A stretch of 64,000 nt of DNA from an uncultured Candidatus Peribacteria bacterium (GTDB taxonomy: Bacteria > Patescibacteriota > Gracilibacteria > Absconditabacterales > Absconditicoccaceae), in contig CAYQLB010000003.1 of assembly GCA_964418415.1 (NCBI GenBank), positions 12,618-76,617 on the forward strand, written 5' to 3'. Of the stretch, positions 18,275 to 56,625 are shown piece after piece. The notes below the pieces were generated by a model that saw nothing but the letters and a program-made list of their open reading frames with translations, was not told where the DNA came from and searched no databases. The translations under genes and the position numbers were made by a program. How positions within the stretch are numbered: the first letter of the stretch is position 1; each line of letters opens with the position of its first letter.

Positions 18275-21200
18275 TTATTTTTTGTTGCTGTTATAAATAA
18301 ACTCTTTTACATCATCTAAACTGCTGAAATATCTTTCACTAGTGAATGTATAAGATGAATATCTACCATTAATATCCTTGAAGAAATAGAAAACCTTTTT
18401 ATTCGGTGCAGTGAATGGTGATGTTTGCCATATTCCATCGATGCGCGCATTTTTCCATCGAGCTAAGATAGGTTTAGCATTCGCATATTGTGATCCTGCA
18501 GGATTATTGATATCGATGATATATTTTAATGTATCCAAGGTAGGGAAATATTTAGGCACTACGAAATTCGTCGAAGTGAACCGTTGTGTTGCGCTATCAT
18601 AGGTGATAGTGTATCTTTTACCATTAGGCGCGGTATAGACACCATTATTGATTCGATCCATAATATCTATTCCTTCTTCGCCGAATTCATCGCTTTCATA
18701 ATATTCGTCAGCGAGATCATAGAGGTATTTCAATGCTTGCCATTCTGTATCATCTTCATCGTCGATATCATCCATTTTCTCTTCGAGCATAAGCATAAGG
18801 GTATTGAAGAATTCTTCTTCTTTGTCTCCTGCATAGAGATCTCTTAATGTTTCGAAGAGATAGACAACAATAAGTTTCTCAGTGTTTGAAAGATCAGTAT
18901 CGATATCGTCATAATCATCATCTACATCATCATCTTCTTCTTTGGTGGTAACTTTGAAAGTATCTGACTTACTATCGATAGTCAGCGTGCTTTCCACGGA
19001 ATCATCATATTCATCGCTTGAGATAAGCTCTATTTTTACTGTCCATCCATTCTGTACATATCACGTAGTTCCTACAGCATTTCCGCTGATGTAGAGCATT
19101 CCTCTATTAATGATTGCAAGTACTTGTGTTCCTGTAGAAAGACCACTGATAGTAATAGTATTAGACATATACGTTTCATCAAGGTCAGCATCATCGATAT
19201 CATTGAATGAAAATGTATTTGGTGTTGTATCCAATATTCCGCTATAGATAAATGATGATGTTGTGGAATATCATGAGTTTCCAAGATTATCTGTCGCTGT
19301 GACATACCGGTAATATACTCAATTGCTGAGAGTAAGGTTAGGTATGGTAGCTTGAGTAGTTGTTGTTGTAGATCACGATCGTCTGATAATAGTGAATCCT
19401 GTAGTATCTGATACATAATATCTATATCAAGAAATTCCCACCGCATCACCAACACCTGATCGGCTGAGAACAACATTTCCACTTACACTAGCTCAACTGA
19501 GTGGACTGCTAAGTGTAGGAGAGATAACCGTAGTGTCTAGATATACAGAGAGAGATGGAAGAGTTACCGTATCTCCAGAAGTATTCTCTAGAGAAAGCTG
19601 TACGGTTTTAAGTCCATCATTTCCCGTAAGTTGTGGATTAACAATAATATGTCAGGAGATAAGTCCTCCAGTAATACTATTTACTATATCAGATCATGTG
19701 ACTAGATATTTGTATGGTTGATTAGCTCGAAGATCTATTGAAGCATATGCTTTGACATATCGGTATGGCGTAACGTAATAACGATTTGTTCCTGTCAGTA
19801 CTGCTTGTCCTGAAAGTGGTGTGGTGATCATAAACGGTAAGATTTGGCTCATACCTGTGTTTCCTGCACGATCTGTGATAATAACATATCGGGTATAATC
19901 CAAAGCATTATTCATAGTATGTATAGTATATCCTGTATTTGTTGTTGTGATAGTGTGTTGATAACTTCAGGTTACATACAAAGTATACCCAGAAATTGCT
20001 GTTTCATCGAAGCCTGTCCATGAAAACGCAATATTGTTAGTTCCGGTGATATTGAGTCCGCTCGTAGGATAATTTGCCGTAACTGATGGATTCGTCATAT
20101 CTATAGTAAAGATCATCCCCGTAGAATTATCAGCAAGATCGTAGACAGTAAATATATAGGTTCATTCTGAACTCACTATTTCCCCATCAGTAAAGTTTCC
20201 ACTATAATAGGAAATATTCATTCCACTAACTATAGCTCCAGAAATATACAAATCATTAAAATTGATAGTAATTCATGTGTTGTAGTAACCTCCACTGATG
20301 ACATTACCGGATATTAATGACCCTAATGTAGTGCCGGTAAATACAGGTTTAATTTTATCTATAGTAAAGGTTATTCCTGTGGTATTTCCTTCATTATCTT
20401 CCAAAACGAAAGTATAGGATCCATCTCAAGTAATGAGGGCATTATTAGTATATGGAGTACTGTTTAATAGAGCTCATGAAATATTAAGTCAGGTGAACGC
20501 TATCCTGATTCCGGTATTATAATATCCACCATTAGTAATAATAGTTCCTGATTGTGTTGTTCCTGTAAAGTATAATCATGGTGTTCAAAATGAGAAGAGT
20601 TTAAGTGTTCCATTGGTAGAGAAAATACATTCAAGAGATGTATTTAATATACATCAAGAATCTATTGTATTTGGTGACCATGTGTTTCCGTCGATTGATT
20701 TTAATATACTAAGATATTGTCCTATAGTTCATGATAAGACTTGATAATATATCGTTCCTGTTCCTTCATTCATAGTAAGATAGGTTGATCCAGAAATTAC
20801 CTCTATAGTATCAAAAAATGTTGTAATCAATTGTGCTGATCATACATCTCATGTTGTTGCTAATTTGATTCCTGTAGTTATTTTTGTCGGTATATATACT
20901 GTACCATCTCGGTTAGCTCCAGAAATAGTAAATGAAGTACTTCAGTGTATTTCAAAATTTGTTGCTAAACGTAGATGATCAAAATAGATAGGGAATGTTC
21001 ATCCTATAGATAAAATGTTTCATGTTAATTTTGCAGAATTTAATCCTTCAATTCGTATATCATTATTTTGTGTGTAAGTGTCATAAGTAGTATATTGAAA
21101 AGATCAGTAGGCATTAGATTCAATAATGCCATTATCTCATGAAAAATAAATTATTCTATTTCACGTGGAATTTTGCATTAATATATTCCATCATCAAATT

Positions 21201-22909
21201 CAATAAACGATAGAATTCATAATGTTGTTATTATTGCTATTATCCAAGAATATTCATTGACCGCCGTTTCATGATAATATGCTTCAAGAGATAATATTTG
21301 CACTTGATCATGTAAAGACTATTCCTTCATTATAATTGCTGTTTATGACAGAATTTATGATTTGGGTATTGTTTGAGGTGTCTAATGTTATTCAATTATC
21401 TTCATTACTTGATAAATTACATGAATCAATAATAGTTCAAGAAGAAAAAGAAAGTAAAATACCATTACCATTAAAACCAATAAGTCCATTATTATTGAAG
21501 GTTGAATACATGATATTATTACTTGTTCATGTTTCAATCACTATTCAGACTCTACTGTTATATGTACTAGTAGAATGAGTGATGGTATTGTAATCACTAT
21601 ATGACATATATACTCCATGTCCCATATTTCCTGAAATTATTGCTCAGCTTATCGTATTATCAGATGAATTGGAAGTGAATACGATTCCATTTTTGGAATT
21701 GTTACTGATGTTTATAGATGTGAAGATATTGTCCATTGAATCATCAAGATATAATCATCCTTCATTGCTGTTTGAGACGATAATCATTCATGTATTGTTG
21801 TTTGAGTTATAGAAATGTACTCATGCATAATAATTTCCGTAGACATAGATTCACATCAAATTATTACTTGAAGAATTGTTGAAATATACTCACATAGCAT
21901 TTGCACTATTATTGGCAGTGATATCAATAAATGTATTATTGTTGGAATTATACGTAGATACATTGTGGTCTGTGTTGTTATAGGAATCTACATTAGTGAA
22001 TGAACTATTACTTATTCATTGTAAGGATACCCCTTTTCATATGTTTGATGAAATATCTATATCAAGAAAATTGTTATAGGATCATGTTAATAGTGATACT
22101 CCATGGGTATTATTGTTGCTATTTATACCACTAAATACGCTGTAGTTTATATTGTTAAATGCAATTCCATATACACTATTTTGATATGTTTGTACATTAT
22201 TCATGAAAATGTTGCTTACATTAAGACCCACTATTCCATTTGAATTATTGTGGAGTTGTGTATTTATAATATCCATATAAGATACTCCAGAAATGAGAAT
22301 GCCATATGCATTATTTGATCATGTCGTATTTTTATACGCTTGGAAATCTCTTACGGTTGTATTCATGCCGCCATCGAGGTAGATTCAGAAATGTCATTCG
22401 TTGTTCCCGTCTACTCTTATTTTTTCAATAATGATATGTTTGTTTCCATTACCTTTGATGATGGCTGGATTGGTCGTATTACCTGAAAGTGTGACTATTC
22501 CCGAACTAATCAATGCTACACAATCGTTGAGTGTAATCGGAGCTGTTACATCATAAATGTCAGAATCTATCACATAGATAGTGTTTGCTACGGTTGAAGT
22601 GGGAATCGTTCATGTGAATTCTACTGTCATTCATCCGTTCAAGCATGAACCAGAATTGTATCCTGTCCAATGCTGTGTATATGCGGTGTTTTCATCACCG
22701 CTTCCATAGAGCGCTCGGATGATATCATCATCAGTCGGTGCATTATCCCAAAATAATCAGCTGAGATAATTGGAATTATCTCGTGTGATAGTTCCTACCG
22801 TCCGTGTTGCTGCATTCGCGAAGAATGCATAGATTCACAAGAAAATCCCCATAGCGATAAAGAGGATGCTCATGAATTTTGAAACGGTTGATTGTTGTGT
22901 GTGTTCCAT
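18275..22909 (-). CDS. giant surface protein (1544 aa): signal peptide, Asn-rich parallel beta-helix repeats, Fn3/Ig-like modules, acidic tract, C-terminal domain
   Basis: ATG at 22909 (MEHTQQSTVSKFMSILFIAMGIFLGIYAFFANA). There are ~20 repeats of the type NNxxNGIxxxxSxNNxI (pectate-lyase/NosD-like). Fn3 signatures are VVLSWSGVGDAVGISGYRYYV and GVYYWYVTATDNLGNSG. An acidic run EEDDDVDDDYDDIDTD is present. Track ORFs 18275, 19694, 22082 and 22835 share the frame. I checked 18995-19500 codon by codon. Confidence 0.8.
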
Positions 22910-22949
22910 GATATGGTTGAAATGATAAATGATAATTTGGGCTACGCCC

Positions 22950-23083
22950 GTAATGAGACTTTGTCGGTAATGTGTCCTATCGGACGTAATGAATTGTAAT
23001 AGACCTTGAGTCGTAATTGGTAATTGATTACGCGACCAAAGGGAGCAAATTACGCGAAGCTCATTACATCGAAGATTTGTTAC
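22950..23083. repeat. GTAATG...CATTAC mini-hairpin array in a divergent promoter region
   Basis: GTAAT(G/A/T) at 22950, 22967, 22986, 22996, 23013 and 23020. Orientation then switches to (C/A)ATTAC at 23027, 23048 and 23062. The spacers are small palindromes (gac ttt gtc, gtcc tatc ggac). Confidence 0.8.
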
Positions 23084-23309
23084 ACGAACGCAGTGAGTCA
23101 TATACTATTATATACGCAGAATTGAAAATTGCGAAATGTGTCCTATTCTGATATATATTCAACTTGCTTTTTTTATAAAAAGTTATGAAATATGTTAACA
23201 TACAAAACCATTGAAACGTCGAGGGAAAAACGTATTTACAATACAATACCATGTATGATGTGAAATACATAGTATAAAATATTTTTTTAGCATATGTAGT
23301 GATATTATT

Positions 23310-25676
23310 ATGGCTGATCAAGTACCGCAGATGCCGCAAACGCCGATGCAGCAAGATCCTCAAATCCCTGTACAAGCGCAACAACAAATCCCTGGGGCAC
23401 CACTCCAGCAGGCTCCTGTCGAACAAGCTCCTCTTCGTCCTCAACAAACGGCTAATGTCACGAAGCCTACATCCAAGATTTCCATGAAGGGAATATTGAT
23501 TTGATGTGGTCTTATCTTTATGTTCGTGGTCTGAGGATTGTCACTTGTGTTCTATAATCTTATGAACAATCCGACGCAGCTTTCGAGCGTAGGATTAGAT
23601 CCAAATACTACAAAGACCTTATTACAGACATTTTCTGTGTTATTTTTTGGTCTTTTGACCTTCCTTGGTATAGGACTCCTCATTGTCAATCTCTATAGAG
23701 TGATTACCGTAAAAAATAAATCGAAAATCTGATATATTTTTGGCGCTTTTCTTGGATTTATCGTATTTATTTTGGCTATCGTTCTCTGATCGAGAATCAT
23801 TACCCTCGTGAGAAATTTTTCTGTAGAAAATATTCTGGATAGTGATAAACTTATCATGCCGTATATTCAGCTCAAAGATAAGCCGACCTATACACGTGGT
23901 GATGTGGCACTGAAACTGATCGCTCCGGCAACGATGCGATATACACTCAATAGCAATTATTTTAATTCTCAAATAGTTCCTCCGCTCTGACAAGTAAATT
24001 TCCAGACCATAGTCTTGGATTGTGGTAATGGTCAAAAACTTAACCTAAATTTCACGACCTTCCAATTTGAAGGGTCATGTATCTACTTCAAAAAATGAGA
24101 ATATCCACTAAATCTCGAGACGAGCTATATCAATATTCCGACTTCGGAGAAAATAGAAAAAACCTTTCCAGCAGGATCTATTGTTTTCGATTCTGAGATC
24201 AATGTCGGACCGACAAAAGGCAAACTTACCTTCAATGATGCTAATACGGAGATGATTCTTGGAAAAACACCGAGCAAAGTAATGTTCGATGCAAGTGCAG
24301 TATTCAAGGATCTAAGTATGACAGATTATAAAATTATCTGGGATTTTAATGGTGATGGTGAGGCAGACAAACAAAATAATGCTTCTACAACCTATGTCTA
24401 CAATGAAGCAAAACTCTACAACGTATATGTAAGATTCCCTACGCTCAATAATTATATTTATACATTCCCTGTCAGAGTAGAACAATCTGATGTCCCTGTA
24501 TGTGAAGTGGTTGTTACTCAGGCGGAAGGAAAAAATTATACAGTCACAACCAATTTCTTCGACAAAACCGTAAATATCACTAATTATCAATTCGATATTC
24601 TTAATAGAAATAATAAAGATAAAGTTATCGAAACGATAAGAAATAATAATGGTAGTTTTACCTATATTTTCCAAAACGCTTGAACGTATGCTATCCAAAA
24701 CACTTTCCTTACAGAAGATGATAAGCAAGGGCAATGTGAAAGTGATGATATCCAAATAGGAGTGACAGATTTTCAAGTAAACTATGATAGCTATTTCAAA
24801 TCACCGAATTCTCCACAATTCAAAAAAGTAGGTAATGAAGGTATAGTATTTTGGAGTGGAGAAGAATTGATACTTACGGAGATCCCTACGGTCATAAAAT
24901 TACAAATCAATCAAATTATTCCAAATTCTACGACTGCAGTCAAAAAAGTGCAGATTGATGGAAAGCAAGTACTTTCTACTGATCCAAATAGTTTCGAATT
25001 CACTATTTCTGATAACGCAGACCATGAAGCAAAACTGCTTATAGAGGATACGCCGAGCGGTGCCAAGACAGAGATACTTATTCCTATCAAGATACATAGA
25101 CCAGATATTATCGGAAAGGTGATTGTTACTCCAGGGACCGTAGGTACAGATCCATTCAATGTCACTTTTGATGTTTCTACGACGGTTCTCAATACTACAG
25201 GAGATGAAATAGTATCCTTTACTTGGGACTTTTGAGATGGTAGTCCTGTGAAGAAAAATTTTTCTGAATCTATCATCACGCATACCTACAGATACGATAT
25301 AAACAACGAGAATGGGACATTCCATCCGCTTATCACCATAAAAACGAAGAAGGGTCGTGAAGTGACCATTACCACGGAAAATGATATTATCGTCAAAAGA
25401 GCTAATCAGACATTAAATATCTTTATAGATTCTCATCCTGCACAAGTAGCGAATATTGGCGATAGAGTAGGATTCTCCTTAGAATTCAACGGCTTGCCTA
25501 CAGAAATAGCACGAGATTTTTGAGATGGTAAAACACTGACATGCAATACTAGGCAAGAATGTGGTACAACGAATCATGTCTATGTATCGCCAGGAACATA
25601 CCTTATCAGAGCATCAGTTTCTTATGAAAATCAACCGACAATTGACGGCACAATTACCTTAAAAGTAAATCCATAA
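23310..25676 (+). CDS. membrane protein with Gln/Pro-rich N-terminus, 3 TM helices and PKD-type repeats (788 aa)
   Basis: ATG 23310 to TAA 25674. Six track ORFs share one frame and are joined by TGA. PKD signatures are IIWDFNGDGEAD, FTWDFGDGSPV and IAWDFGDGKTL..NHVYVSPGTY (the last W is CGA). Confidence 0.85.
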
Positions 25677-27222: not shown

Positions 27223-29328
27223 ATGGCCGAGCGAAAAAGCCTAGACAAAGTGAGAAATATTGGAATTATGGCTCACATCGATGCAGGAAAAACAACCTTT
27301 ACAGAAAGAGTCTTATATTACACAGGGAAAAAGCATAAGATCTGAGAAACTCATGATGGAGAAGCAGATATGGATTGGATGGAACAAGAAAAAGAGAGAG
27401 GAATTACTATTACCTCCGCTGCTACTACCTGTTTTTGGTATGATTGTCAGATCAATATTATCGATACTCCAGGACACGTAGACTTTACGGTTGAAGTAGA
27501 GAGATCTCTTAGAGTGTTAGATGGTGCTGTTGCTCTTTTGGATGGATCTCAGTGAGTAGAACCTCAGACAGAAACCGTTTGGAGACAAGCAGATAAATAT
27601 GGAGTTCCAAGAATCATTTTTGTAAACAAGATGGACAAACTTGGAGCTGATTTTTATATGTCCGTAGATTCTATCAAATCTAGAATTACAGACAAAGGAG
27701 TTGTTCTTCAACTTCCTGTAGGACAAGCCGATGAATTCAAAGCTATCGTAGATTTGATAACCATGAAAATGTATACGTTCTCATGAGAAAAAGGTATCGA
27801 AATACACGAAGAAGAAATGCCAGCCAATATGCTCGAAAAAGCAAAGACATACAGAGAAGAAATGATCGACAAGATATCTATGTTTGATGATGAATTAGCA
27901 GAAAAATTCCTCGCTGGAGAAGAACCATCTATTGAACTTATCAAAAAAGCAATCAGAAATGGAACAATAAATAATAATTTATATCCTGTACTTTGTGGAT
28001 CTGCACATCAAAATATTTGAGTGCAATTATGACTCAATGCAGTCATTGATTTTTTACCAACTCCGTTGGATAGAGGAGCTATGAAGGGAATAGATCCAGA
28101 TGATGAGACAAAAATTCTTGAAAGATTACCAAAAGATAGTGAACCAGTTTCAGCAATTGCATTCAAAATTGCTACTGATCCATTCGTTGGAACCCTTACT
28201 TTCGTAAGAGTGTATTCAGGTATCATAAAGACATGAGACACATTGCTCAATCCACTTACCAGACAAAAAGAAAGAGTAGGAAGATTGTTGCTTATGCATG
28301 CCAACAAGAGAGAAGAAATATCAGAAATACATGCTGGTCATATCTGCGCCTTCCTCGGACTCAAAGATACGAGAACAGGACATACGCTCTGTGATATGAA
28401 AGATCCTATTATTCTTGAAAAAATGACATTTCCTGCACCAGTTATCGATATCGCTATCGAACCAAAATCAAAAGGTGATCAGGAGAGAATGGGTATCGGA
28501 CTTTCCAAACTCGCATACGAAGATCCTTCATTCAAATATTACTCAGATCCAGAAAGTAATCAGACGATCATCGCAGGAATGGGAGAGTTACATCTAGAGA
28601 TTATTGTAGATAGATTGAGAAGAGAGCACAAAGTCGAAGTGAACACAGGAAAACCTCAAGTCGCCTACAGAGAGACTATCCAGCAGGATGCAGATGGAGA
28701 AGGAATATTCAAGAGACAGACAGGAGGTAGAGGACAATTTGGACACGTATTGCTTCACCTACAAAAAAACATGGAGAAAGATTATGAGTTCAAGGATGAG
28801 GTAACAGGAGGTACTATCCCGAAAGAATTCATTCCAGCTATCGATAAGGGAGCGAAGGAAACGGTTGCACAGTGAGTTCTTGCAGGATATCCTATTATCA
28901 ACGTAAGAGTAGTTCCTTACGATGGATCGTATCATGATGTAGATTCCTCTGAAATCGCGTTCAAAATTGCTACCTATAGAGCGTTCAAGGATGCCTTCAT
29001 GAAGGCAGGTCCATGTATCTTGGAACCTATCATGGATGTAGAAGTTGTTACGCCAGAAGATTATGTCGGAGATGTGATGGGAGATCTTTCTTCTAGAAGA
29101 GGAATGATCCAAGGACAAGACAAGAGAGGAAATGCAGCAGTGATCAAAGCTAAAGTTCCATTGTCTGAGATGTTCGGATATACGACTGATTTAAGATCAA
29201 ATACCCAATGAAGAGCGCAGTCATCTATGCACTTCTCATCATACGAAAAGGTGCCAGACAATGTTGCTAAGAAGATCATAGAAGAAAGAGTTGGAGCTGG
29301 AAAGATCAAAGCTATGGATGCTGAATAG
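27223..29328 (+). CDS. fusA: translation elongation factor G
   Basis: [24 protein letters not shown] (TGA 27343-27345 = Gly), [31 protein letters not shown] (TGA 27553-27555). 701 aa, TAG 29326. Confidence 0.97.
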
Positions 29329-29571: not shown

Positions 29572-30075
29572 ATGCATAAAAAAGTCGTCGTCAATGACAT
29601 CATGCAGAAAAACTATACCTATTATCTGACTGAACCGATGGGCAGGAGTTTTTCTCCAATGTTTCATCCGGAATTAACACCGCAGGAGATGCTCGAGATG
29701 GGCGTATTTTGAGGAAAATACATGACAGATTGTCAGAAAGAATTTCCTTTATCGCGATTCAAAAAAGCGAAATTATGCTCGATCAAACACGATCCAAAAC
29801 TTAATTTCTTCGGTGTGAATGCTTCGCAATCACTTAAAGTCTGGCAAGAGAAATGACGAATTAATGAAGAAGATCCTCGTGGTCGATTTCAACGATATTG
29901 TAGATATTATATGGGGAGGAGGGGTTCAGATGATGAACGTCAAATTAAACGTTGGAGAGCGATCAAGAGACATATTGTTCAAATAAAGAAATGATGTTAT
30001 CCTCTAGATCGAGACTGTAGAAAAAGACAGAGGCAAGCAGTATTACATCGAGCGTATGATAGCAGGAAATTGTAG
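29572..30075 (+). CDS. conserved hypothetical protein (MGVFGGKYM / GWFQWY-type motifs)
   Basis: ATG 29572 to TAG 30073. With CGA=W it reads ..KGWINEEDPRGWFQWYCRYYMGRRGSDDERQIKRW..LHWAYDSRK. I recall this W-rich pattern from a widespread uncharacterised family, but I cannot name the family. Confidence 0.6.
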
Positions 30076-30079: not shown

Positions 30080-30952
30080 TTATTTCTTCTCTATGGGTAG
30101 AGAAACTACCGTTCCATCTTTTTTTCATAGTGCAAATAACAAAGAAAAATCGTCATTATCAATTCCTTGTCATAAAATATATTCAACAGCATCATTGGGG
30201 GAGACATATAATCTTCCTAATATTGAACTCTTGAGGGTTAATGTTATTCCTATTTTTTTAAGTGATTCATAGATAAGTTCTGAACAATAGAGAGTACTAG
30301 TATCTTCGGTGATAAGGTCAAAATCATAGTTTTTTCCAAGATTATTGAGTGTATGATGTAAGAATATTTCAAGATTGCCCGTATTGGTGAGTATCCTAAA
30401 AGCGATAATCGATTCTAAGTAAGAATTTTCTTCATTCTTAATGTTTGCTACATCCATGAGATTTCTGATATGAACACCTTTGGATGTACTATCTATTATG
30501 AGCTCTTCTATATCATTGGTAAAATACGGTGCTAATGCTAGATATATATCTCCTGTTTCACTAAATTTTTCGACGAGCTTTGGACGAGTACCGATATAAA
30601 TGATAGAATGTTGTCGTTTCCCCGGTATAAAAAAACTGCTTACATATCTACTATCGGTGAAAAAGATATCGCCAGGCTGTAATTGTGATATAGAATTTTT
30701 TATATCTGTCCGTGTCAGTGATGCTCATGGGTCGGTTACGATATTGTAATCATCATCCAAAGTAAAATCTCTGATGGCTATATGACTAATACTTGCCATG
30801 AGTACCGACTGAATAGGAAGTCTGATGGTGCTATCTATGATAGGAATGGTTTTTGGAAATATCAAGGAAAATACTATAAATACCAAAAAGATTCAACCAA
30901 TGGTGGATAATATCAGTACACAGATGTTTGTTATGATTTTCATTTTTGCCAT
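30080..30952 (-). CDS. YiiX/YaeF-type permuted papain-like (C92) amidase, membrane-anchored
   Basis: N-terminal anchor MAKMKIITNICVLILSTIGGIFLVFIVF. Motifs QPGDIFFTDS and STLYCSELIYESL. It reads through TGA 30170 to TAA 30080. The start could instead be 30943. Confidence 0.6.
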
Positions 30953-30978: not shown

Positions 30979-32049
30979 CTATTTCATACTTTCTGCCAAT
31001 AATCTCGATTGGTTTTCCATAATGAGCGCATCGATCATATCTTGAATATCGCCGGTCATAAAGACAGGTAGATTGGACCATGATTGATGAATACGATGAT
31101 CAGTAACTCTATCTTGAGGAAAATTATAGGTTCTAATTTTTTCTGATCTATCGCCGTTTCCAATTTGGTCACCCCTAAGTGTTTTTGTCTCTGCGTTTTT
31201 TTTGTCGAGCTCTACTTGATACAATCTTGCTTTGAGAATTGACCAAGCTTTTTCTTTATTATGCATTTGAGATTTACTATCTTGGATATTAACAATTACT
31301 CAACTTGGAATATGACGTAATCTTACTCCCGTTTGATTCTTATTAGCATTTTGTCCTCCTGCTGTCGATCATGCATAAGTATCTATTTCTACATCTTGAG
31401 GATTGATATGAAAATCTATATCTTCGGCTTCAGGCATAATTGCTACGGTTACTGTTGAGGTATGTACTCTTCATTGGCTTTCTGTTGCTGGTATTCTTTG
31501 TACTCTATGAACTCCGCTTTCAAATTTCATGATAGAGTATACACTACTTCCACTGATTTTTACCATCACAAATTTGATGCCTCCGATATCAGAAAGCTGT
31601 TCTTCTACGATTTCTGTTTTTCGTCATTTTTTCACTGCATATCCAAGATACATTTTCAAGAGTTCTGTTGCAAACAATCCCGCTTCATCACCACCAGCTG
31701 CTGGTCTGATTTCTAAAAAAATATTTTTGTCATCATTTGGATCTTTTGGGAGGAGTTCAATCTTAATCTTCTGTTCGAGTGTTTCCAATTGTATTTCTCC
31801 TTCTTTCAATTCTTCTTTGGCCATCTCTACCATCTCTACGTCATTTTCATTGTTCAATAGTTCTTTGGCGCCTTTTACTTGTTCATCATATTTTCTATAT
31901 GTTTGAATAAGATCGTAGATGTCCTGTAAAGATGATATCTCTTTATTGACAGCGATAGATTTTTTAGTATCAGAAATAATTTCAGGATTCATTGATTGTT
32001 CCCTGAGTTCAAGATATCTTTTTTCTATATTTGCTAATTTATCTAACAT
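30979..32049 (-). CDS. prfA: peptide chain release factor 1
   Basis: [14 protein letters not shown] (the RF1 PxT tripeptide context) and [17 protein letters not shown] (GGQ). TAG stop at 30979-30981. Confidence 0.92.
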
Positions 32050-32104: not shown

Positions 32105-32464
32105 CTAATATCCATCTTTCTTTTTAGATGTTTTTATACTTGCTACAAGTATTTTCAATAATTCTTCTCATAAATGATATAATGATATGTATTCGTTTTT
32201 GTTGATATATTCTGTTTCTAAAAGAATATCTAATCGATATAAGGTTTCATTAGCTTCTTTGAGTGCAATACTCATTTTATTTATAAAGTCAGCTCTGGAT
32301 TGTCCAAATTCAGCTTCACGAACTAAAGCTCAAATACTTGTTCATGATCTTATCAATTGTTTGCTTAGAATAAATTCTTGTTTTTTCTGAGAAAGATGCT
32401 GATAAAGTCTTACGATTTTAATGCTGAATTTATAACTCTTTGTTTTAAGAATATTCTCAGTCAT
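32105..32464 (-). CDS. four-helix-bundle protein (TIGR02436 / Avd-like), second copy
   Basis: SKQLIRSGTSIGALVREAEFGQSRADFINKMSIALKEANETLY[CGA]LDIL matches the family signature, ending in the ETxYWLxLL box. Confidence 0.8.
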
Positions 32465-32525: not shown

Positions 32526-33161
32526 TTAGTAAAAAACTTGTCCGATGATCGTAAAGAGAAAATTGAAAATTGCGGTGGCGACTTTTACAAAAATAGGACT
32601 TGCGATATACACCAGTGCTATAACGAAAATTATACCGAAACGTGCATTTTGTTCCATCCATGCTGCTGCATCATACCATCGGATTTTGATCAGTCTATAG
32701 CCATCAAGTGGCGCAATGGGGATAAGATTGAAGATAGCAAGTGCTATGTTGAGAAAGCTGAAATTGATCCAGAAACTATTCATAATGTCGATATTATTGA
32801 GAAAAATATCATTGGGAGTTCCTCCGATGAGTTTCGTATAGATGAGGATAACAAGGATACCGATAATTGCTAATATCAAATTCGTAGCTGGTCCTGCGAG
32901 CGCTACCATCAGCTCTCATTTGCGGGGATTTTTATAGTACATAGGGTTGACTTGTACAGGTTTACCTCGTCAGAAATGTGCGACAAATACCATAAGAAAT
33001 CCTATAGGATCGAGATGTTTTAGTGGATTGGGAGTTAGTCTTCATTGTAATTTAGGTGTAGGATCTCCCAGACGATAGGAAACATATGCATGAGCATATT
33101 CATGCATTCCTATAGATACGGCAAGAATAATCGCCAATTGTACAATTTCAAAGATATCCAT
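32526..33161 (-). CDS. site-2 protease family (peptidase M50) membrane metalloprotease
   Basis: HEYAHA zinc motif, HFG[CGA]GKPVQVNP (= FGWxKPV box), NLIPIAPLDGY. Confidence 0.88.
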
Positions 33162-33259: not shown

Positions 33260-35251
33260 TTATTTTATTGCATTAGTGAGAAAGTTCGAGAAGTTATTGA
33301 AGTTCCAAACTCTTTTTCCATCGATATGGATATTGTTGACAAGTTGAAGATTTTTATAAATATACTCCCTCCAGTTGTATTCATCGATCTCTATTGTTCA
33401 GGTGCCGAAAAGTTTTTCCATAAGTGTAGGTTTGATATTGAGATTGAGATATTCTTTTCCGAGAATAACAAATGGCATATCCTTAGAATAGATGCTGTTG
33501 ATTTCAATCAATGGTTTCCTTTTGCCTTTTTCATCAGCAGCGATATATTGCTTCAAAAGCGTAGTAAGTTTTTGGTTTTGATATTGAGATGGATTGATTT
33601 CTGATTTGTCAGTGCTAAAGAGTTTAGTGAGATCTTGTTTGAGTCCCATATCTACAGCACTGATAAGAATATCATAATCACCGACCATGAGTTTGCCTTG
33701 TAATTCTTCAGGGGTTGCTATTTTTTTGAATTCGAAATTTTCTGTAATGTTTGCTTGTTGGAAAATATCTTGCATCCTTGCTACAACAAAATCGTTGATA
33801 TAATTGCTATAGTAAATAACAGTGAGTTTGACAGGTTGACCTTCATAATCTTCGGGTTGTGGTTCTGAGATAACATTATAAATATCGAGTGAAGCAAGTA
33901 AGTTTTTTTTAGCTCCGACATAACCATAGAGAGAATATTTATTTATTCCTGATCAGAAATTTTTTTCTCCGAAACCAAAGGTATACCATCCGGACTTTCC
34001 TCATTTAGTGAAATGTAATGGAGTATAGGTTTTGCCTTTATATTCTATCGTGATTTTATCATAGCCTGGATCGAAGACCAGCTCTACAGGAAATGATGTT
34101 CAGGTATCTACGAAGTAAACGAGTTTTTTGTTTCCTCCTTGAAGAAAAAGCGATTTGGGTAATGATTGAATATTTATGTCGATAAGATCATCTTTGGTTA
34201 TAGCATTTTCACTGTATTCACGATTGAGGAGATTCTTTACATCGAGTCCGGTGGATTGAAACACATCGAAGAGTCCGTCATCATTTTTTTTGAAATATTC
34301 TTCATATCCACTGCTATAAAAATTATGTTTAATGAGTCATCCAAGCACTCTTCTTCCTCTAACGCGGAGTTTTTCAGAGTTAGTATTGAAGAAGGTCATA
34401 ACGAGTTGATTAGTAAGCAATTTTTTTGCTTCATATCCATATAATGTCTCTTCTCCGAGATAAGCGTCAATAATAGATTTGCCTCAATTTTCAATCGATC
34501 TTTTGAAGTTATCAAATGTCGTAGTATTTTTGACTTGATAGAAATTGAGATTACTTTGATTACAATTAACGAGATTGAAGACAAGAGAATATTCATCATT
34601 GGATTGACCGATGAGATTGGCACAATTTGTATAGACTGGCTTAAACGCGAACATAGATTTGTAATCATTTAATTCTGCGTTGATTAATATATGTTTAGGA
34701 AGTATATAGTTGGTGAAAAAGAGAATATTGTCAGATGATGGGGTAGAAAAGGTCACTTTCAAGGTATTGTTGATGTCTTTGGATATAGTGATATCATTGT
34801 ATTGAGTAAGAAGTGTTAACTTCCACATATTATTGCGCAAAATTTCGTCGTAGGTAAAAAAGACATCTTCCAGTGAAACAGGTGTGCCGTCAGATCGTAT
34901 AAATCATTTATTGAGATGTATAGTGTAATTTTGATTGTCTTCAGTGGTTACCGTACATAAATCAGGGATATATGAAACAGTATGGGAATCATATGTCGGC
35001 TTAAGACATCCATTGAAAAGTAATCCTTGATAGAAATTACTCTGAATATCGTTACGGAGATAGGGGAGATATGATGTATTGCCAAATATTCCTTCTACAA
35101 AAGTTCCTCCCTTGGTGCTTATCTGAGTAGAAGAAAATTCTACATATTGATATCCCACATAAATACTTATCAGTATCCGAAAAAATAATGATAAGAAAAA
35201 GACATCTCTCAGAATATCCCTTACGAGTTTAGTCTTGATCGATAAAATCAT
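33260..35251 (-). CDS. ABC transporter substrate-binding protein, family 5 (peptide/nickel type), membrane-anchored
   Basis: 663 aa. Track ORFs 33398, 34484 and 34904 share one frame. I verified codon by codon that the gap 33776-34483 contains only TGA. Family assignment rests on general SBP_bac_5-like length and pattern only. Confidence 0.6.
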
Positions 35252-35254: not shown

Positions 35255-35479
35255 TTATTTGGAATACGGTAAAATAAGCGAAACGAGCAAGAAAATGATA
35301 CCAGTAACGAGAGCAACCTTCTTGAGCTTATTTTCGAGGGTTTTTTTGCTTCCGTATTCGTTCCCTCCTGCCATACCACCGATACCTAAACCGAGACCTC
35401 CTTTTGGAGACATAAGTAGGACAGATCCTATGAAGGCAATTCCTGCGAGGATAAGTACGATAACCAATAATGTATGCAT
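35255..35479 (-). CDS. secG: preprotein translocase subunit SecG
   Basis: 74 aa with two TM helices and a Gly-rich loop: LLMSPKGGLGLGIGGMAGGNEYG. Confidence 0.8.
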   Translation of the reverse strand: MHTLLVIVLILAGIAFIGSVLLMSPKGGLGLGIGGMAGGNEYGSKKTLENKLKKVALVTGIIFLLVSLILPYSK

Positions 35480-35633
35480 TTTTTTATAACAAAAAATAAA
35501 GTGGCATAACTATATATATATAGCTTGGAAATTCAACCACAATTAAAAAAGATGCAAGATACAAGATACGAGACATAAGATGTTTTTTTGTCTAATATCA
35601 TGAATCATGCATCGTGTATTAGGAAACGTATGT

Positions 35634-38276
35634 TTAGTTGATAATCGCGAAGTTGACAATGAGATACCCAGTTCCAAGTACAAGTATTCATAACAACATA
35701 TAAAATAAGCTATTTTTGATGTTTTTGATTTGAGCTGGATCATCTGGCTTGGTAAGTAATTTGACGGTTTGGATAATGATAATTACCAAAATAACCAATG
35801 ATGCTATTCCCAAAGCATAGTTGATGATTTGGTAGAGAATAGGGATATTCTTATCAGCCAATATTCCCGATCAAATCTCTCAGAGATTTGTAATACCATT
35901 TGGATTAATTACATCGCTCTGTTTTCCATATATCGCTTGGACTATTTGTTTTGCTCCGATGATAATAAACATAGAGATAACATTCCGTCCGATCAATGTT
36001 CATGCTTTCTTTTGAGCATCACTATCGCTTCCAAAAAGGAAGGTGATGACGCGACTTACGAGAATGACGAACATCGCACCCAAGACAAGGTAGATAGCAA
36101 ATTTGATAAACGGATAGATAATTCTATCGTAGAGTCAGGTTGCTATATTGGTACCTACAATTTCTCCCGTGGTGAGCATATCGTAGACGTTTTGTCCAAT
36201 AAACTTAGCACTCATGATGACAATGATACCTACGATACCAAATACTATATATCTTGTTCCTTCTTTGACTGCATTTTCATCGCTCGAGAACATGAGTTTA
36301 TAAAATCCGAGGATAGCAGAAAGGATACCTATGATGATGATAAGGGGAACAAGGACGTTCATGATTTTGTTGAAAAGAAAGTTTTGGAGTCCTTGAGTTC
36401 CTATTGCGCCTTCCGCAGCTTCGAGGTTTTGATTAACTCCTTCTATACTCCTACTGAGTGCAAGATCAAATCTCCTTGCTTCTACAATTTCAAAGGTTCC
36501 CGATCGTGTATTATTAGTACCAGTTACATCAGTAATGCCGACACTTCCCGGATTGATACTACATACCATAATTTTGGTACCGAGTGCTTGTGTGAAGATA
36601 GGTTTGATCCTGATGTTTACACCGACTTTTGTTCAAGCATTCAGAATGAATTGTTCAAGGATATTAGAACTATATACATTAATATCTCCTCCTTGAGCTT
36701 TCCATACACACGTTAAGAATCCTGCTGCGAGATTGGTTCCATTTACTGGTGTATCTCCTTTATTCTTAAACAGTATACTAAGTTCTGGGCTCGATCCTTG
36801 AGCAATCAGATATCCACTACGTACAGGAGATTCATTGATAGCGATATCTACACCAGCAACCAATCCTCCGATATCTGTACAACCAGGGTATTTGTAGGTT
36901 TGTCGATTACCATTGAGTATACCTCCACTACAGGATAAAATGGTAGAAAAATCATTACAGCTTTTTGGATATTCTACTCCAGTAGAAGAATAGGCTCATA
37001 TCTGCGTTCCTTCCGCTAATGGTGCTCATCGAGGAAGTACACATCCACCACAACTTGGATAGAGTCCAGCTTGTGAAGTAACGATTCCTCAGGTAGTGTA
37101 TCGTGAACTATTTGTACACGTGAGTTTTATTTTGACACTTTCACATCACAAACTTGCTGTAGGAGTATTGGAAGTATATCCATAGATAAATTGCATATGA
37201 GGGACATATGACCCTCGGATATTAGGACATGATCCCGAAGCAACATTTTGACATCCAGTATATAGGGCACCAATATTTCCTGATCGTGTGCCATTGGTAC
37301 ATTGGAGTAAGTGAGAAAAAGCATTACATGATTCGTTGAGTGCTGCGAAAGCATGTGGTTGTGTATATTTAGTTACATAGGTTCCGTGAGGCAAGGTACC
37401 CGAACCAGAGATGATATTTGTACATGGAGTCTGTCCTACGGGAGTACATCCACTATAGAGGGAAAGTTGATTTCCTCAACTTCGCTGTCCATTGATACAA
37501 GTAAGTGGAGTAAGTAGTCCAGTACATATCCCTGATGGGGCAGTATATGCAGGGAGCTGATATCCATGAGCAGTCATTTGGTTGGTCCATATATTCAAGC
37601 ATCAAGCATATGTTCCTGTTTGGATACATCAACTAACCAGACCAGCTTGTCCAGCGGTACCATTTCCTGATCGCGTGCTATTAGTACAGGTGAGTGTTTT
37701 TTTTAATGTGTTGCAAGTTTGTCATGGTCATGGAGTATTAGCTGTATATCCTATGATCGTTTCTCCATGATCTTTGATCGTATTAGTCCAGACATCCAGA
37801 CATTGCATCCGTGCTTGATCTGTACATTTTCGGTATTGGTAGAGTGATGGAGTAATACCTCACGTAAAAACACCATTCAAACACTGTAAGTTTTGACTGA
37901 GTTGTTGACAGGTCTGGGTATAGGTATTCGTAAGTGATTTGTACAAGATTTTATATTCCAGATGGTTTGCTCCTGTTGGTGTTGTACAATTTGCCCATGT
38001 ATGGGGAATACATGATGGGTATTTGTACGTATTGATATTTGCTATGCTTCAGCTGATGCAAGTAACAAGCGCTTTGGATCAGGTACAGCTCTGGGTATAG
38101 GTAGCTTCAGCTATTGAATAGCCAGTCTTAGATTGTCCATCAGCAAGCATAGAAGGATTCCGTCCCATAGGCAGAATGCAGTTCTGTGCATACGAAATGG
38201 CAGCTAATGAGAAAATCATGATCAAGATGGCTCCGATCCATTTACTTACCGTGATAGAAAGTGTTCTTGTATTCAT
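35634..38276 (-). CDS. fusion protein: signal peptide + 7 Cys-rich ~55-aa repeats + three tandem T4SS-pilin-like TM hairpins
   Basis: I checked codon by codon that the frame is open down to TAA 35634. The start is either ATG 38276 (MNTRTLSITVSKWIGAILIMIFSLAAISYAQ) or ATG 38324. 38276 avoids overlapping the upstream gene's stop at 38281. Repeat and hairpin motifs are given in the finding for this gene. Confidence 0.75.
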
Positions 38277-38280: not shown

Positions 38281-39309
38281 TTATTGATGTGATAAAACAG
38301 TTTTTTTAGCAAAGAACGATCCAATCGCCTTACCGAGGAGAAGAAGTTCTCTCGCGATAGGGAGATGAGGAAGATGTTTCAGCTGTATCGCCATAATAAG
38401 ATATCTCGTACTTATGAGACCAAGTCATACATAATATGTCCATACGGTGAAATCAGGTTTGAGAAGATAAGAGAGTAAGATAATTATTCCTATCCCAAGT
38501 ATATATTCTATAATGAGTAGAGTATTGTTGTGAATATCTATAATGCGACTATAGACTTCTTTTTCTTTGGCGATATCACCGGATAGCGTATATTCGTCTC
38601 CATTGAAGAAGAGACGACCGATTGTTTTTCCCAAGTACGTAATGAGTCAAGTGATGTATCATCGAAGCTCTTCAGGATTTTTAGTAAATAATATATTGAG
38701 ACGTTGTTTTATGGTTATAGTGAAAACATCAATATCGGACATAAGTGAAGCAACTCTTAAAATAATGATAATGAGAATCGTAGTACAGATCATAATATTA
38801 CCTGACATACATCCTATCATAAATATGATTCGTCGAAGGAGTGACTCTTTGATCCATCGATTTGGGTTCTCGAAACTATGTATGTTATACCAGAGATGAA
38901 TATTATATATGGGGAGATATTTGAGAAGAATATCTTTTTTGTTACCTTCGATAGTGTATTCTTCGGTAGTTCATCCCGTTCATTTCATAAGACTGATATC
39001 TGAAAGAATACTCACTACACTGATAATGAGCAATGTAATGAGGATAAATATACTTACAGTATACGTTACACTCAAGAGTTTAGTAACGAAGAGATAATTT
39101 AATATGCCTGCAGTAACTGTAATAAGACCAAAGAGTAAGGTAATATATCCAAATTTGATGTAACCACGAATAAATGCTTTATCGCTATCAGAAATGTCTC
39201 GATTGTTCTTTTGGAGTATATTTTGCACCAACGGAGAAAAAAATAACGCTGCTGCAAGCGAAAGCTGTGTTTTGGTGTTTGTATCAAATGCTTTCGTTTC
39301 TTCGACCAT
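38281..39309 (-). CDS. polytopic membrane protein in the T4SS-like module (function unknown)
   Basis: 342 aa. Track ORFs 38425 and 38980 share one frame. Hydrophobic helices include GYITLLFGLITVTAGILNYLF, VSIFILITLLIISVVSIL, GNIMICTTILIIIILRV and ILGIGIIILLSYLL. Stop TAA 38281. Confidence 0.65.
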
Positions 39310-46971: not shown

Positions 46972-47715
46972 ATGTCTAAATTACGTCGAAAGATTAACAA
47001 TTTTTTTTGGAAGCTGGAAGGACGATTAAGATCGTCACTGTTTTTTCTATTCATTTTTTCTCTATTTCTTTTATTTCAATATAAATGGCAGAATCCTGGA
47101 ATGACCCCACTCATGCCGATTAGATTTGTAGATCAAATCATAGATAAAAGGCAGATAGTACTCAAACACACCCGGGTGCCAATCGAACAGATTTCCAATA
47201 ATATGATTTACGGTGTCATTGCTTGAGAGGATCAGAGGTATCTTGAACATCGAGGGATAGATATGGAGGCACTACGAGCTGCTTTGAAAAAAAATATCAA
47301 ACATCAGTCATTGAGTATTGGTGGGAGTACTATCACCCAACAGACAGCGAAGAATCTCTTTCTCCGGCCAGATCGTTCACTCTTCAGAAAAGCCATAGAG
47401 TTCTATTTCGCTATTATGATGGAGCTTTTATGGAGTAAAGAAAGAATTATGGAAATCTATCTCAATATTATAGAATTCTGAGATTGAATATATGGAGTCG
47501 AACAAGCTGCACAATATTACTTCGACAAACACGCAGCAGATCTTACACAGAGCCAAGCGAGTTTCCTTGTTGCTATTATGCCGAATCCGAGATATTACCA
47601 GCTCCACAAATATAATGGATGGATATCTTTCAGAAAAGGAGTCATTAATAGAGCTATCTCTAGTATGAAAAGGAATAAGGAAATGAAAATATTTGTAGAA
47701 GCAACAAAAGAATAA
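46972..47715 (+). CDS. mtgA: monofunctional biosynthetic peptidoglycan transglycosylase
   Basis: [28 protein letters not shown][CGG], [39 protein letters not shown] 46972 (a GTG at 46957 is also possible), TAA 47713. Confidence 0.9.
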
Positions 47716-47775: not shown

Positions 47776-48396
47776 ATGTTCGAATTTTTGCATCCGCTTA
47801 TAGACCGATATATGGTTCATGTTAACTATCGAAGCATAGCTGCATTAATGACGATAGAAAGTTCCTTTATACCTTTTCCTTCAGAAGTGATAGTTCCTCC
47901 GGCATGATGGAAAGTCGCTCAAGGATTGCTCAATGGATGGTTAGTGATGCTATCTGCAACCATAGGAGCATTATTGGGGGCTTTGGTTAACTATTATTTG
48001 GCTCTACGATTGGGAAGAAAAATTATCTACAGACTTGCAAACACGCGTCGAGCACATATGATTTTTATTACCAATGAATCTATAGAAAAATCTGAAACAT
48101 ATTTTCGTAAACATGGTAAAATCTCCACTTTTATTGGACGTTTGATTCCAGCTATTCGCCAATTGATCTCTATTCCAGCAGGATTAGCGAAGATGAATAT
48201 GAAACAATTTATTCTCTATACTTGTTTGTGAGCATGAGTATGGAATCTCGTACTTTTTGTAGCTGGATACTTGCTTGGGCAACATCGAGATAAGGTAATC
48301 GAATATAATCATATTTTCAAAATCATTATATACGCAATTATAGCAGCTGTGATTGTGTATTTCATCCTTCGTTACGTTTTTCGCAGAAGGAAATAA
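47776..48396 (+). CDS. dedA: DedA family membrane protein
   Basis: IAALMTIESSFIPFPSEVIVPPAG, YFRKHGKISTFIGRLIPAIRQLISIPAG, LLGQH[CGA]DKV. Confidence 0.85.
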
Positions 48397-51290: not shown

Positions 51291-51308
51291 TAAAAAGTAA
51301 ACGAGGTA

Positions 51309-52106
51309 TTATAGAGATGATAATCAATCCGTTTCGTTTTTCAAGAAAACGCTCTTACTAGCTATGAGAAGAGAATTTTGTGATGTTTTCCATCATGTGA
51401 TTTTTTTTCACTTAGCTACATAACCGATATGCTGTAGAGTAAATCCACTGAGTGAAAGTAATTTTTGTAATTCAGATAGAGTAAATATATGGTAAAATCT
51501 CCATGCTATGGTTTTGCCGTTTTTTCGTGGGATCATAAGATCGTTTCGTTTGTACTTACCAAAAGAACTAATAAATCTTCGGCATGAACGTAAGAGATCT
51601 ATTTTGAATTTTTTTAGAAATCGTCGAGAAAAGGATCGATTGTTCATCATAAATTTTCCGTCATATTTCAATATTCTATAGATGTTTTTGATCAGAAAAA
51701 ATCTTTCTTTGATAGTTGGTAGATGTTGAAAACTCGCTATACCGACAACAAAATCAAAGGATTCTTGTTTCAATGTTTGTATATAATGAACGATGTCGTC
51801 GTGTACGAATTCTGCAGAAATATATTTCGGAATATTTTTCCCGCTTACCTGTTTCTTCGCGAACTTTAATAATTCCTTGGAAAGATCGACCCCGATGTAG
51901 TGGATATTCATTCCTTTGAGCTCTGTAAGGTGAGTAAGAAATCTACCGCTTCCGCAGCCAAATTCTAATATTTTGATTATTTTCTTATTGCAATTTTGTA
52001 GTTCGTCGAGAAAAATATCTGCATCAGCTCGATGTTTGTTTCTTGTATGATAGTACTTTTCAGCTTCTGTATCGTAGAAGCGAGTTAAGGATTTCTTGAT
52101 ATCCAT
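51309..52106 (-). CDS. class I SAM-dependent methyltransferase
   Basis: ILEFGCGSGRFL (motif I), IGVDLS, DFVVGIASFQHL. The standard-code stop TGA 51408 is read through for 33 codons to TAA 51309. Confidence 0.75.
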
Positions 52107-53161: not shown

Positions 53162-53169
53162 ACTTTCAA

Positions 53170-55416: not shown

Positions 55417-55653
55417 ATATAAGAATCTTTGGATAAAGGGGTATTTATAGGAGTAAGTATACTGTTTTTGGCTTCATTTGTCAACGTTAATGCGAAGATA
55501 GAGAACGAATACCACTATGTCTTGAAGTACCTAAATATTCAGAACAATAAGTTTTTATGTGAAAATTGTCAATAATGCCCTTGCAATTAGTGCGTTTTTT
55601 TTTATACAGCGGGTGCGTTAATCGTATTTTTTATATAATAAAGCTATAGTACT

Positions 55654-55860
55654 ATGAAGAAATTACTTACTCTAGCAGCTCTTGTAGCTGGTGTAGCTCT
55701 TTTCGCTGGATGCATGAATAAACCAGTAGAAGAAGAAACTATCGTAGAAGAGACACCAGTAGTAGAAGAAGTTACAACTGAAGAAGTAACTCCTGCAGTA
55801 GAAGAAACTACTACAGAAACTACTACAGAAGAAGCAGCTCCAGAAGCTACAGCAGAATAA
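55654..55860 (+). CDS. small acidic lipoprotein (lipobox FAGC, E/T/V-rich tail)
   Basis: MKKLLTLAALVAGVALFAGCMNKP followed by EETxVEE low-complexity sequence. TAA stop, then a terminator. Confidence 0.6.
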   Translation: MKKLLTLAALVAGVALFAGCMNKPVEEETIVEETPVVEEVTTEEVTPAVEETTTETTTEEAAPEATAE

Positions 55861-55902
55861 TTCCCTACATAGATAGGTTGAAATCCTCTGTAAAACAACT
55901 AA

Positions 55903-55927
55903 AAAGAGTCGAAAGACTCTTTTTTTA
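55903..55927 (+). terminator. rho-independent terminator
   Basis: aagagtc gaaa gactctt followed by a T-run. Confidence 0.75.
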
Positions 55928-55941
55928 TATACATAATAAAC

Positions 55942-56625
55942 ATGCGTTTAACTGCTTACATCCAAAGTAACCATCAGATATCCCGTAGAGCTTTTGTTGA
56001 TATGATCAAACACGGCTATGTTTTGGTGAATACCAAAAAAGTAGAATCATATGCAGAGGAGGTCAAATCAGGTGATATTGTTGAAATTACCGCACCCAAT
56101 TTTAAACTCAAGGATACAGTAAAAGGAGAAAAAACAAGTTCGACTATCATCCTGTTTAATAAACCAAAAGGATATGTTACTTCCAAATCTGATCCACACA
56201 ATGAAACAATTTACGATATTTTACCACCGGAATTTAAAAAATATTATTATATCTGAAGACTGGACAAAGATTCTCATTGACTACTTCTTTTGACCGATGA
56301 TCCAGGATTGGTCAATTCTTATGAGCATCCCAAAAACGGTATCGAAAAAGAGTACGACATCGAGTTAGACAAAGACCTTGCTCCAAGAGATCGTATTCAG
56401 GCAATCCAGGGAGTGAAGGATGGAGAAGATATGTTGAAAGCACTCAAAATTATCCAGATAAAAAGATATCACTTTAGAGTGTTATTGAACGAAGGAAAAA
56501 AGCGCCACATTCGCAGATTATTTCAAGTGTTATGATATCATGTCTTGGATTTACAGAGGATACGTGAAGGACAATATAGATTAGATAATATCAGGATCGG
56601 AGAACGGAGAATTGTAGGAAAATAA
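55942..56625 (+). CDS. RsuA/RluB-family rRNA pseudouridine synthase (S4 domain + catalytic domain)
   Basis: YYIGRLDKDSHGLLLLTDD (catalytic Asp box; two of its Gly are TGA), EKEYDIE, EGKKRHIRRLF, IGE[CGG]RIV. Confidence 0.85.

Follow-up and report, generated by a model that had tools for sequence, protein, structure and literature searches.

Which amino acid do the codons CGA and CGG specify in contig CAYQLB010000003.1 of assembly GCA_964418415.1? A 64-kb stretch of this contig (64,000 nt, hereafter the window) raises the question: a first-pass annotation placed these nominal Arg codons on columns held by Trp in about ten unrelated protein families. Our answer, which we give with high confidence, is that the window uses the code of the Absconditabacterales, wherein UGA specifies Gly, CGA and CGG specify Trp, and AGA, AGG, CGU and CGC specify Arg. 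Codon exchange among orthologues, likelihood inference and outgroups that use the standard code all support the Trp reading of CGA and CGG proposed by that annotation. The code change itself is already known for the whole order, having been predicted in 2021.

The window has a GC content of 0.346. Under the standard bacterial code its longest open reading frame (ORF) runs to 307 amino acids (aa), and with TGA as a sense codon to 2147 aa. Selection from the first ATG, without overlaps and at a length of at least 80 aa, gave 47 TGA-as-sense ORFs spanning 90% of the window. These contain 139 CGA/CGG codons (112 CGA and 27 CGG), together with 104 TGG and 385 in-frame TGA. True Arg codons number 496 (AGA 319, AGG 72, CGT 79 and CGC 26), AGA leading with 64% of them. 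With TGG alone, Trp accounts for 0.54% of residues, an abnormally low content that standard decoding of CGA and CGG as Arg would leave in place; with CGA and CGG added, the share is 1.27%. Pfam matches include GT4, PKD, EF-G, RF1, 23S_rRNA_IVP, M50, Dus, monofunctional transglycosylase, DedA/VTT, SpoU, methyltransferases and an RsuA/RluF-type pseudouridine synthase. The loci and proteins closest to the window carry the label candidate division SR1 or Candidatus Absconditabacterales; judged from these labels, the window is Absconditabacterales (SR1) DNA.

Related loci were gathered by three routes. A scan with the Dus protein across one genome per GTDB species returned 30 loci; as the best Dus identity was 76-77%, the species of the window is absent from these representatives. 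Metagenomes searched with the PKD protein gave 18 more loci at 70-80% identity, and contig look-ups added further relatives' loci. Genes of the species itself turned up on short Logan contigs only, from several sequencing runs; it is present in SRR11845627, SRR11845628, SRR30949875, SRR30949878, SRR29243436, SRR31914703 and ERR14064716. The resulting comparison set comprises 57 loci (890 kb), in which stop-to-stop ORFs were called. CGA and CGG codons were masked as X in all homology searches, favouring neither reading. The relatives' ORFs were aligned to the masked window proteins, and the relative's codon opposite each window codon was tabulated; site-wise counts were used alongside counts of individual cells to remove most of the dependence between relatives.

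The tabulation revealed that CGA, CGG and TGG are one synonymous class on Trp columns. Opposite window CGA, the relatives' orthologues carry CGA (47%), TGG (21%) and CGG (10%); opposite window CGG they carry TGG (56%), CGA (23%) and CGG (17%); and opposite window TGG they carry CGA (37%), TGG (33%) and CGG (13%). AGA, AGG, CGT and CGC are a separate class on Arg columns, for which the cells in relatives are Arg-class in 70% of cases, Lys codons in 15% and members of the CGA/CGG/TGG class in 0.4%. By site, orthologues cover 94 of the 139 CGA/CGG codons; TGG occurs in at least one relative at 64 of these and CGA/CGG at 84. Across 354 AGA/AGG/CGT/CGC sites, the relatives have Arg-class codons at 304, CGA/CGG at 5 and TGG at 3 (site-level Fisher P = 3.6e-50 and 2.7e-52 for CGA/CGG against Arg-class sites). 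Standard decoding is difficult to reconcile with this pattern, in which CGA and CGG hardly exchange with AGA, AGG, CGT and CGC, although the latter interchange freely with one another and with Lys codons. Furthermore, CGA-TGG is the commonest non-identical pairing of window CGA and, because the two codons differ at two nucleotide positions, its frequency does not represent simple mutation between neighbouring Arg and Trp codons. Trp-class cells make up 82% of the total at CGA/CGG sites and 83% at TGG sites, giving no sign that CGA/CGG prefer the more conserved Trp sites. Paralogues within the window provided no informative CGA/CGG-to-Trp pairs except for the PKD repeats.

A Codetta-style inference, a type of check that the first-pass annotation had proposed for the whole genome, was run on the window codons. 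BLOSUM62-based log-likelihoods of the relatives' aligned residues were summed for each window codon with equal weight per site, the relatives' own CGA, CGG and TGA being disregarded to avoid circularity. Of 62 codons, 59 kept their standard meaning; CGA=Trp, CGG=Trp and TGA=Gly departed from it. For CGA, 64 informative sites favour Trp by +93 nats over Tyr and +156 over Arg; for CGG, 15 informative sites favour Trp by +36 nats over Tyr and +55 over Arg. AGA, AGG, CGT and CGC were each inferred as Arg. TGA, which pairs with TGA and GGN in the relatives' orthologues, is Gly from 203 sites at +246 nats above the next amino acid, and the UGA-as-Gly background of code 25 is confirmed for the window, which also carries an RF1 gene (30979-32049). 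Code 4, in which UGA is Trp, was rejected: TGA was inferred as Gly, and Trp would otherwise rise to about 2.6% of residues. The window agrees fully with NCBI table 25 in its UGA-to-Gly part, but table 25 retains CGA and CGG as Arg.

The cleanest test against organisms outside the recoded lineage is provided by one small gene, which lacks a Pfam match:

29572-30075, plus strand: gene for a 167-aa protein with six CGA codons
29755-29757, 29857-29859, 29884-29886, 29893-29895, 30010-30012 and 30049-30051, plus strand: the six CGA codons

The family is highly conserved: more than 8000 homologues, at an identity of about 70%, are spread over Chloroflexota, other Patescibacteria and archaea. Non-recoded lineages account for 107 of the 120 best homologues, and all 107 have Trp at five of the CGA columns (aa62, 96, 105, 108 and 160); the sixth column, aa147, holds L, W or F. 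Seven Trp columns are invariant in these outgroups, and the window fills five of them with CGA and two with TGG. Many Arg columns are likewise invariant, and the window encodes them by CGT, AGA or AGG. The residue R appears in the CGA columns solely in 13 SR1-type database proteins; these 13 also have R where the window has its two TGG codons, which indicates that they contain mistranslated CGA/CGG codons. In the relatives, aa105 is CGA in five and TGG in one, and aa108 is CGA in six. The genomic position of this gene varies among SR1 relatives.

The eleven codons listed by the first-pass annotation are indeed all CGA or CGG, located where it had placed them and in frame within long TGA-containing ORFs. 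The Arg codons that it had cited as counter-examples, FF[CGT]MGDFYE in MutS and V[AGA]NIG in EF-G, are equally real. Wherever orthologues cover its sites they show CGA, CGG or TGG throughout, plus an occasional aromatic codon and one TGA. Together with further codons of the same genes, the sites outside gene 29572 are as follows:

31621-31623, minus strand: RF1 aa143, CGA (gene 30979-32049); Trp in RF1 of both S. mutans and E. coli
32234-32236, minus strand: 23S_rRNA_IVP four-helix-bundle protein aa77, CGA (gene 32105-32464); Trp in PDB 2rld (ANETEYWLELL); relatives CGA 1, TGG 1
32967-32969, minus strand: M50 site-2 protease aa65, CGA in HFG[CGA]GKPV (gene 32526-33161); relatives CGA 11, TGG 1
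47173-47175, plus strand: MtgA-like transglycosylase aa68, CGG (gene 46972-47715); Trp in E. coli MtgA, Y/H in PBP1A and PBP2; relatives CGA 7, CGG 3, TGG 2
47251-47253, plus strand: MtgA aa94, CGA in EH[CGA]GID, a site beyond those listed earlier; Trp in E. coli MtgA (PEHWGFD), F/G in bifunctional penicillin-binding proteins (PBPs)
47365-47367, plus strand: MtgA aa132, CGG in NLFL[CGG]; Trp in E. coli MtgA, T/S in PBP structures; relatives CGA 4, CGG 4, TGG 4
48286-48288, plus strand: DedA/VTT-domain protein aa171, CGA (gene 47776-48396); relatives CGA 11, TGG 2
56605-56607, plus strand: RsuA/RluF-type pseudouridine synthase aa222, CGG (gene 55942-56625); Trp in E. coli RluF (GEWR), Tyr in RsuA; relatives TGG 4, CGA/CGG 3
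25512-25514, plus strand: PKD-repeat protein aa735, CGA in IA[CGA]DFGDG (gene 23310-25676); the sister repeats WDFNGDG and WDFGDG use TGG; relatives CGA 12, CGG 5, TGG 3
19460-19462, minus strand: 1608-aa surface protein, Fn3, aa1214, CGA (gene 18275-23101); relatives TGG 5, CGA 1, TAT 1
19307-19309, minus strand: the same surface protein, Fn3, aa1265, CGG; relatives CGA 5, TGG 1, TTC 1, TGA 1
17638-17640, plus strand: GT4 glycosyltransferase aa185, CGA (gene 17086-18213); three GT4 crystal structures have F, W and Y here
18172-18174, plus strand: GT4 aa363, CGA in EFS[CGA]NE, beyond the PDB alignments; relatives CGA 3, CGG 3

Standard-code outgroups have Trp at five masked columns of gene 29572 and at the masked positions of RF1, the IVP protein and RluF. 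The assertion that the columns are Trp in every known homologue was overstated for MtgA and GT4. The MtgA columns are subfamily-specific, being Trp in E. coli MtgA (sequence taken from NC_000913.3) and not in PBP1A or PBP2. For the M50 protease, the homologue search returned recoded relatives only, with a W/R split at aa65 among mistranslated entries, and the PDB search gave one distant match whose span excludes aa65.

With regard to the decoding apparatus, ARAGORN and Rfam detected no tRNA gene and no other RNA gene, respectively, within the 64,000 nt of the window. In the 57 relatives' loci, ARAGORN found tRNAs for Cys, Arg(GCG), Thr, Ser and Lys only. The sole Arg-box tRNAs in this 890 kb are the following two, one per genome, of which one stands beside a tRNA-Cys(GCA) and the other beside a tRNA-Ser(GGA). 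In both, the D-loop is GGATAG, so that A20 is present, and the anticodon loop is CTGCGAA:

L013, 4524-4677, minus strand: tRNA-Arg(GCG) with its neighbouring tRNA
L019, 1984-2153, plus strand: tRNA-Arg(GCG) with its neighbouring tRNA

As neither the window nor the relatives' loci yielded a tRNA(UCG) or tRNA(CCG), the decoding mechanism rests on published work. According to Shulgina & Eddy (eLife 2021, PMC8629427), bacteria belonging to the candidate phyla radiation are without tRNA(ACG) and decode CGU/CGC via tRNA(GCG) and CGA/CGG via tRNA(UCG) and tRNA(CCG); in Absconditabacteria the latter two have Trp-type identity, with G73 and no A20. The tables in which they list tRNAs and codon usage of 10 Absconditabacterales species agree with the proposed code. 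In one published SR1 phage, the tRNAs are Met, Arg(TCT), Leu and Gly(TCA) only. On this literature, tRNA(UCG) and tRNA(CCG), lacking the arginyl-tRNA synthetase (ArgRS) identity element A20 and bearing G73, would be charged by tryptophanyl-tRNA synthetase (TrpRS). The tRNA-Arg(GCG) would read both CGU and CGC, with no tRNA(ACG)/inosine system in play.

Several observations count against reading CGA and CGG as Trp. Among the 94 CGA/CGG sites with orthologues, there are 4 at which some relative has an Arg-class codon. The statistics draw mostly on relatives with the same code, and the argument therefore presumes that TGG means Trp in them. The search for tRNA(UCG) and tRNA(CCG) in the window and the 57 loci was negative, and the literature to mid-2026 provided no proteomic, peptide or biochemical confirmation of CGA/CGG=Trp. 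Some columns are also ill-suited to Trp. Several GT4 CGA codons occupy variable columns, and the column of GT4 aa324 is not Trp at long range; nor is that of MtgA aa102, which is Glu in E. coli MtgA. Of 60 PBP1A-type transglycosylases, 46 have Arg in the column of MtgA aa132; this set was retrieved with eight X-masked proteins joined as one query, all matches arising from the transglycosylase segment. Two of the four sites with an Arg-class codon lie in basic N-terminal contexts, and there CGA stands opposite AGA in several relatives:

27232-27234, plus strand: EF-G aa4, CGA in MAE[CGA]K; AGA in 3 of 9 relatives
46987-46989, plus strand: MtgA aa6, CGA in MSKLR[CGA]K; AGA in 2 of 10 relatives

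These two CGA codons may be ancestral Arg codons left over where the position is unconstrained, or may hint at residual ambiguity. The last possibility leads to the alternative that survives best, namely that CGA and CGG are decoded mostly as Trp and partly as Arg, through dual charging by ArgRS and TrpRS or through two competing tRNAs, which would make the proteome statistically mixed at these codons. Beyond the EF-G and MtgA positions, this alternative draws on the view of Shulgina & Eddy (PMC8629427) that ambiguity is excludable by experiment only. Conversely, CGA occupies invariant Trp columns in proteins that are essential or strongly conserved, namely RF1 and the family of gene 29572 (five columns), it is used as heavily as TGG, which would be costly were a sizeable fraction misread as Arg, and retention of the Trp class is equal at CGA/CGG and TGG sites. 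We therefore regard ambiguous decoding as very unlikely.

Plant mitochondria provide the precedent for a second alternative, since CGG codons at their Trp columns were first taken for a deviant code and later explained by C-to-U editing of mRNA. Bacteria are not known to edit their mRNA in this way. The window resembles plant mitochondria in having CGG on conserved Trp columns, but here CGA dominates. C-to-U editing of CGA would create UGA, which is Gly in this organism, yet CGA is the main codon of Trp columns and the likelihood inference rejects Gly (Trp exceeds Gly by +157 nats); conversion of CGA to UGG would require two different edits. Furthermore, the published genomes of the clade possess tRNA(UCG) and tRNA(CCG) with Trp-type features (PMC8629427). 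The probability that we attach to editing is accordingly negligible. Standard decoding, in which CGA and CGG remain Arg and the Trp-column matches come from true substitutions, misalignment or chance, could appeal to the Arg of PBP1A-type proteins at MtgA aa132 and to the Arg listed at the relatives' corresponding positions in public databases, but the latter represent wrong-table translations of recoded relatives, which show Arg at the window's TGG columns as well, and this alternative is effectively refuted by the likelihood inference, the gene 29572 outgroups and the site-level exchange, leaving it next to no chance.

The Trp reading of CGA and CGG thus places the window within a code that has already been described. 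Shulgina & Eddy predicted, computationally, CGA and CGG as Trp together with UGA as Gly for Absconditabacteria, and CGA was inferred as Trp in all 10 species of their table (PMC8629427). The first-pass annotation had spoken of a purely computational inference for one uncultivated clade; the first part was right, whereas the prediction covers Absconditabacteria as a group. The code has since been re-detected by a different algorithm, KACI (bioRxiv 10.64898/2026.04.02.715157). A 2026 Nucleic Acids Research paper treats it as known, and in a further preprint of that year sense reassignments in prokaryotes are still termed 'computationally predicted'. The window has in common with the published code the three reassigned codons, the order, the low GC content (0.346), the AGA-dominant Arg usage and, in its relatives, the tRNA-Arg(GCG). 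Capture of Arg codons from the CGN box in low-GC genomes is likewise seen in Anaerococcus and RFN20 Bacilli (Onthovivens), where CGG is Trp, and in Peptacetobacter, where CGG is Gln. In these organisms, however, CGG alone is reassigned, tRNA(UCG) is absent and CGA remains Arg via tRNA(ICG) (PMC8629427), whereas the window uses mainly CGA.

What is slightly new is the codon share, CGA having drawn level with TGG in this lineage. Per 10,000 Pfam-aligned codons, the published species have 13-37 CGA, 0.9-24 CGG and 35-76 UGG; the two reassigned codons contribute 17-61% of Trp codons there and were described as rare, at an early stage and not rebounded (PMC8629427). The window has 59 CGA, 14 CGG and 54 TGG per 10,000 codons, with all codons of the 47 ORFs as the denominator in place of Pfam-aligned ones. 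Here, CGA and CGG make up 57% of Trp codons, and the counts of CGA (112) and TGG (104) do not differ (P = 0.63). The CGA/CGG ratio of 4.1 is close to those of AGA/AGG (4.4), GAA/GAG (4.2) and AAA/AAG (3.7), as would be expected of a long-established three-codon Trp family at mutational equilibrium.

Among relatives, the combined CGA and CGG share of Trp codons ranges from 20% to 83%. It reaches 72-83% in six close relatives (L002, L003, L004, L005, L022 and L069) and in L064, the published maximum being 61%. In these seven loci, which are phylogenetically non-independent, the pooled counts are 202 CGA to 89 TGG despite equal GC content (P = 3e-11), a hint that UGG may be disfavoured in some sublineages. 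It is tempting to speculate that Trp coding is moving out of the UGN box in part of the lineage, although we think this rather unlikely. The tRNA-Gly(UCA), presumed reader of the heavily used UGA, could wobble onto UGG and place Gly at Trp sites; reassignment of CGA and CGG would then let Trp escape to CGR codons, with UGG eventually lost or captured. Shulgina & Eddy note that UGA/UGG ambiguity is possible and go no further (PMC8629427); the escape of Trp from UGG is a proposal of the present analysis.

Turning to the distribution of CGA and CGG within proteins, the suggested clustering at membrane interfaces was not borne out: 5.0% of CGA/CGG codons and 4.4% of true Arg codons lie at predicted interfaces. 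The example on which it had leaned is genuine:

5097-5120, plus strand: three CGA codons in S[CGA][CGA]KKALL[CGA]GGGILGG, directly before a hydrophobic segment of a giant 2136-aa protein (gene 4191-10601); no orthologous positions in the 57 loci

Within hydrophobic cores the difference is threefold, at 6.5% of CGA/CGG codons versus 2.2% of true Arg codons.

At a few variable positions, window CGA stands opposite TGA, that is Gly, in relatives:

17476-17478 and 17518-17520, plus strand: GT4 aa131 and aa145
13690-13692, minus strand: aa70 of gene 13384-13899

A single C/T transition joins CGA and TGA, and a one-step exchange between Trp and Gly is therefore possible in this code.

One further gene is rich in CGA:

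51309-52106, minus strand: Class I methyltransferase gene, in which 7 codons are CGA; its homologues in databases are W/R mosaics at five of these columns

The mosaics arise because the database homologues are recoded relatives that have been mistranslated. Methyltransferase representatives retrieved with a TGA-free segment as query were considered as an independent outgroup and rejected, since nearly all of the best 150 came from recoded relatives whose genes had been called with code 4, recognizable by high Trp, low Gly and W/R mosaics.

The minus strand of the window between 33260 and 41500 carries a gene block common to Absconditabacterales, with the same order in L051, L063, L066 and L069:

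39452-41500, minus strand: VirB4/TraG-like ATPase
38281-39309, minus strand: 342-aa membrane protein
35634-38276, minus strand: protein of 880 aa that matches T4SS_pilin faintly and has repeats rich in Cys and CGA, C-x-N-G/S-x-[CGA]-S-G
about 35428-35691, minus strand: SecG
33260-35251, minus strand: SBP_bac_5 protein

The ORF list has a gap at about 30080-30940 on the minus strand, where the same-species contig L052 has a 287-aa Peptidase_C92 gene after RF1; a gene was probably missed by the first-ATG, non-overlap selection. Many metagenome-assembled genomes in the comparison set are titled 'uncultured Candidatus Peribacteria bacterium' (L002-L006, L011, L014, L016, L022, L028 and L030). In synteny, in TGA=Gly and in the CGA/CGG=Trp pattern these loci match SR1 genomes, and the titles look wrong.

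The consequences for sequence records are considerable. A table 25 translation of the window writes Arg at 139 codons for which we infer Trp, 57% of all its Trp codons. Pipelines use tables 25, 4 or 11, so that over half of the Trp of this organism is recorded publicly as Arg. Indeed, the database M50 protease P0181 is the window gene at 32526-33161 (minus strand) translated under code 4, with 5 of 211 residues wrong: three TGA given as Trp and two CGA given as Arg. It follows that both errors affect the genes predicted for this species in the Logan, JGI and NCBI collection. Plain code 25 is still applied in work of 2024-2026 on Absconditicoccaceae, cultured or enriched, and on Gracilibacteria, one of these studies being metaproteomic. 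Such mistranslation harms homology searches, structure prediction and peptide identification across the group.

Taken together, our findings bear on a class of events that is very rare in bacteria. Sense-to-sense reassignments are seldom encountered, and the case for the present one is so far wholly computational. The window provides an independent and unusually clean confirmation of it, by comparison of orthologues at the level of codons, and demonstrates that reassigned codons can reach the frequency of the canonical Trp codon.

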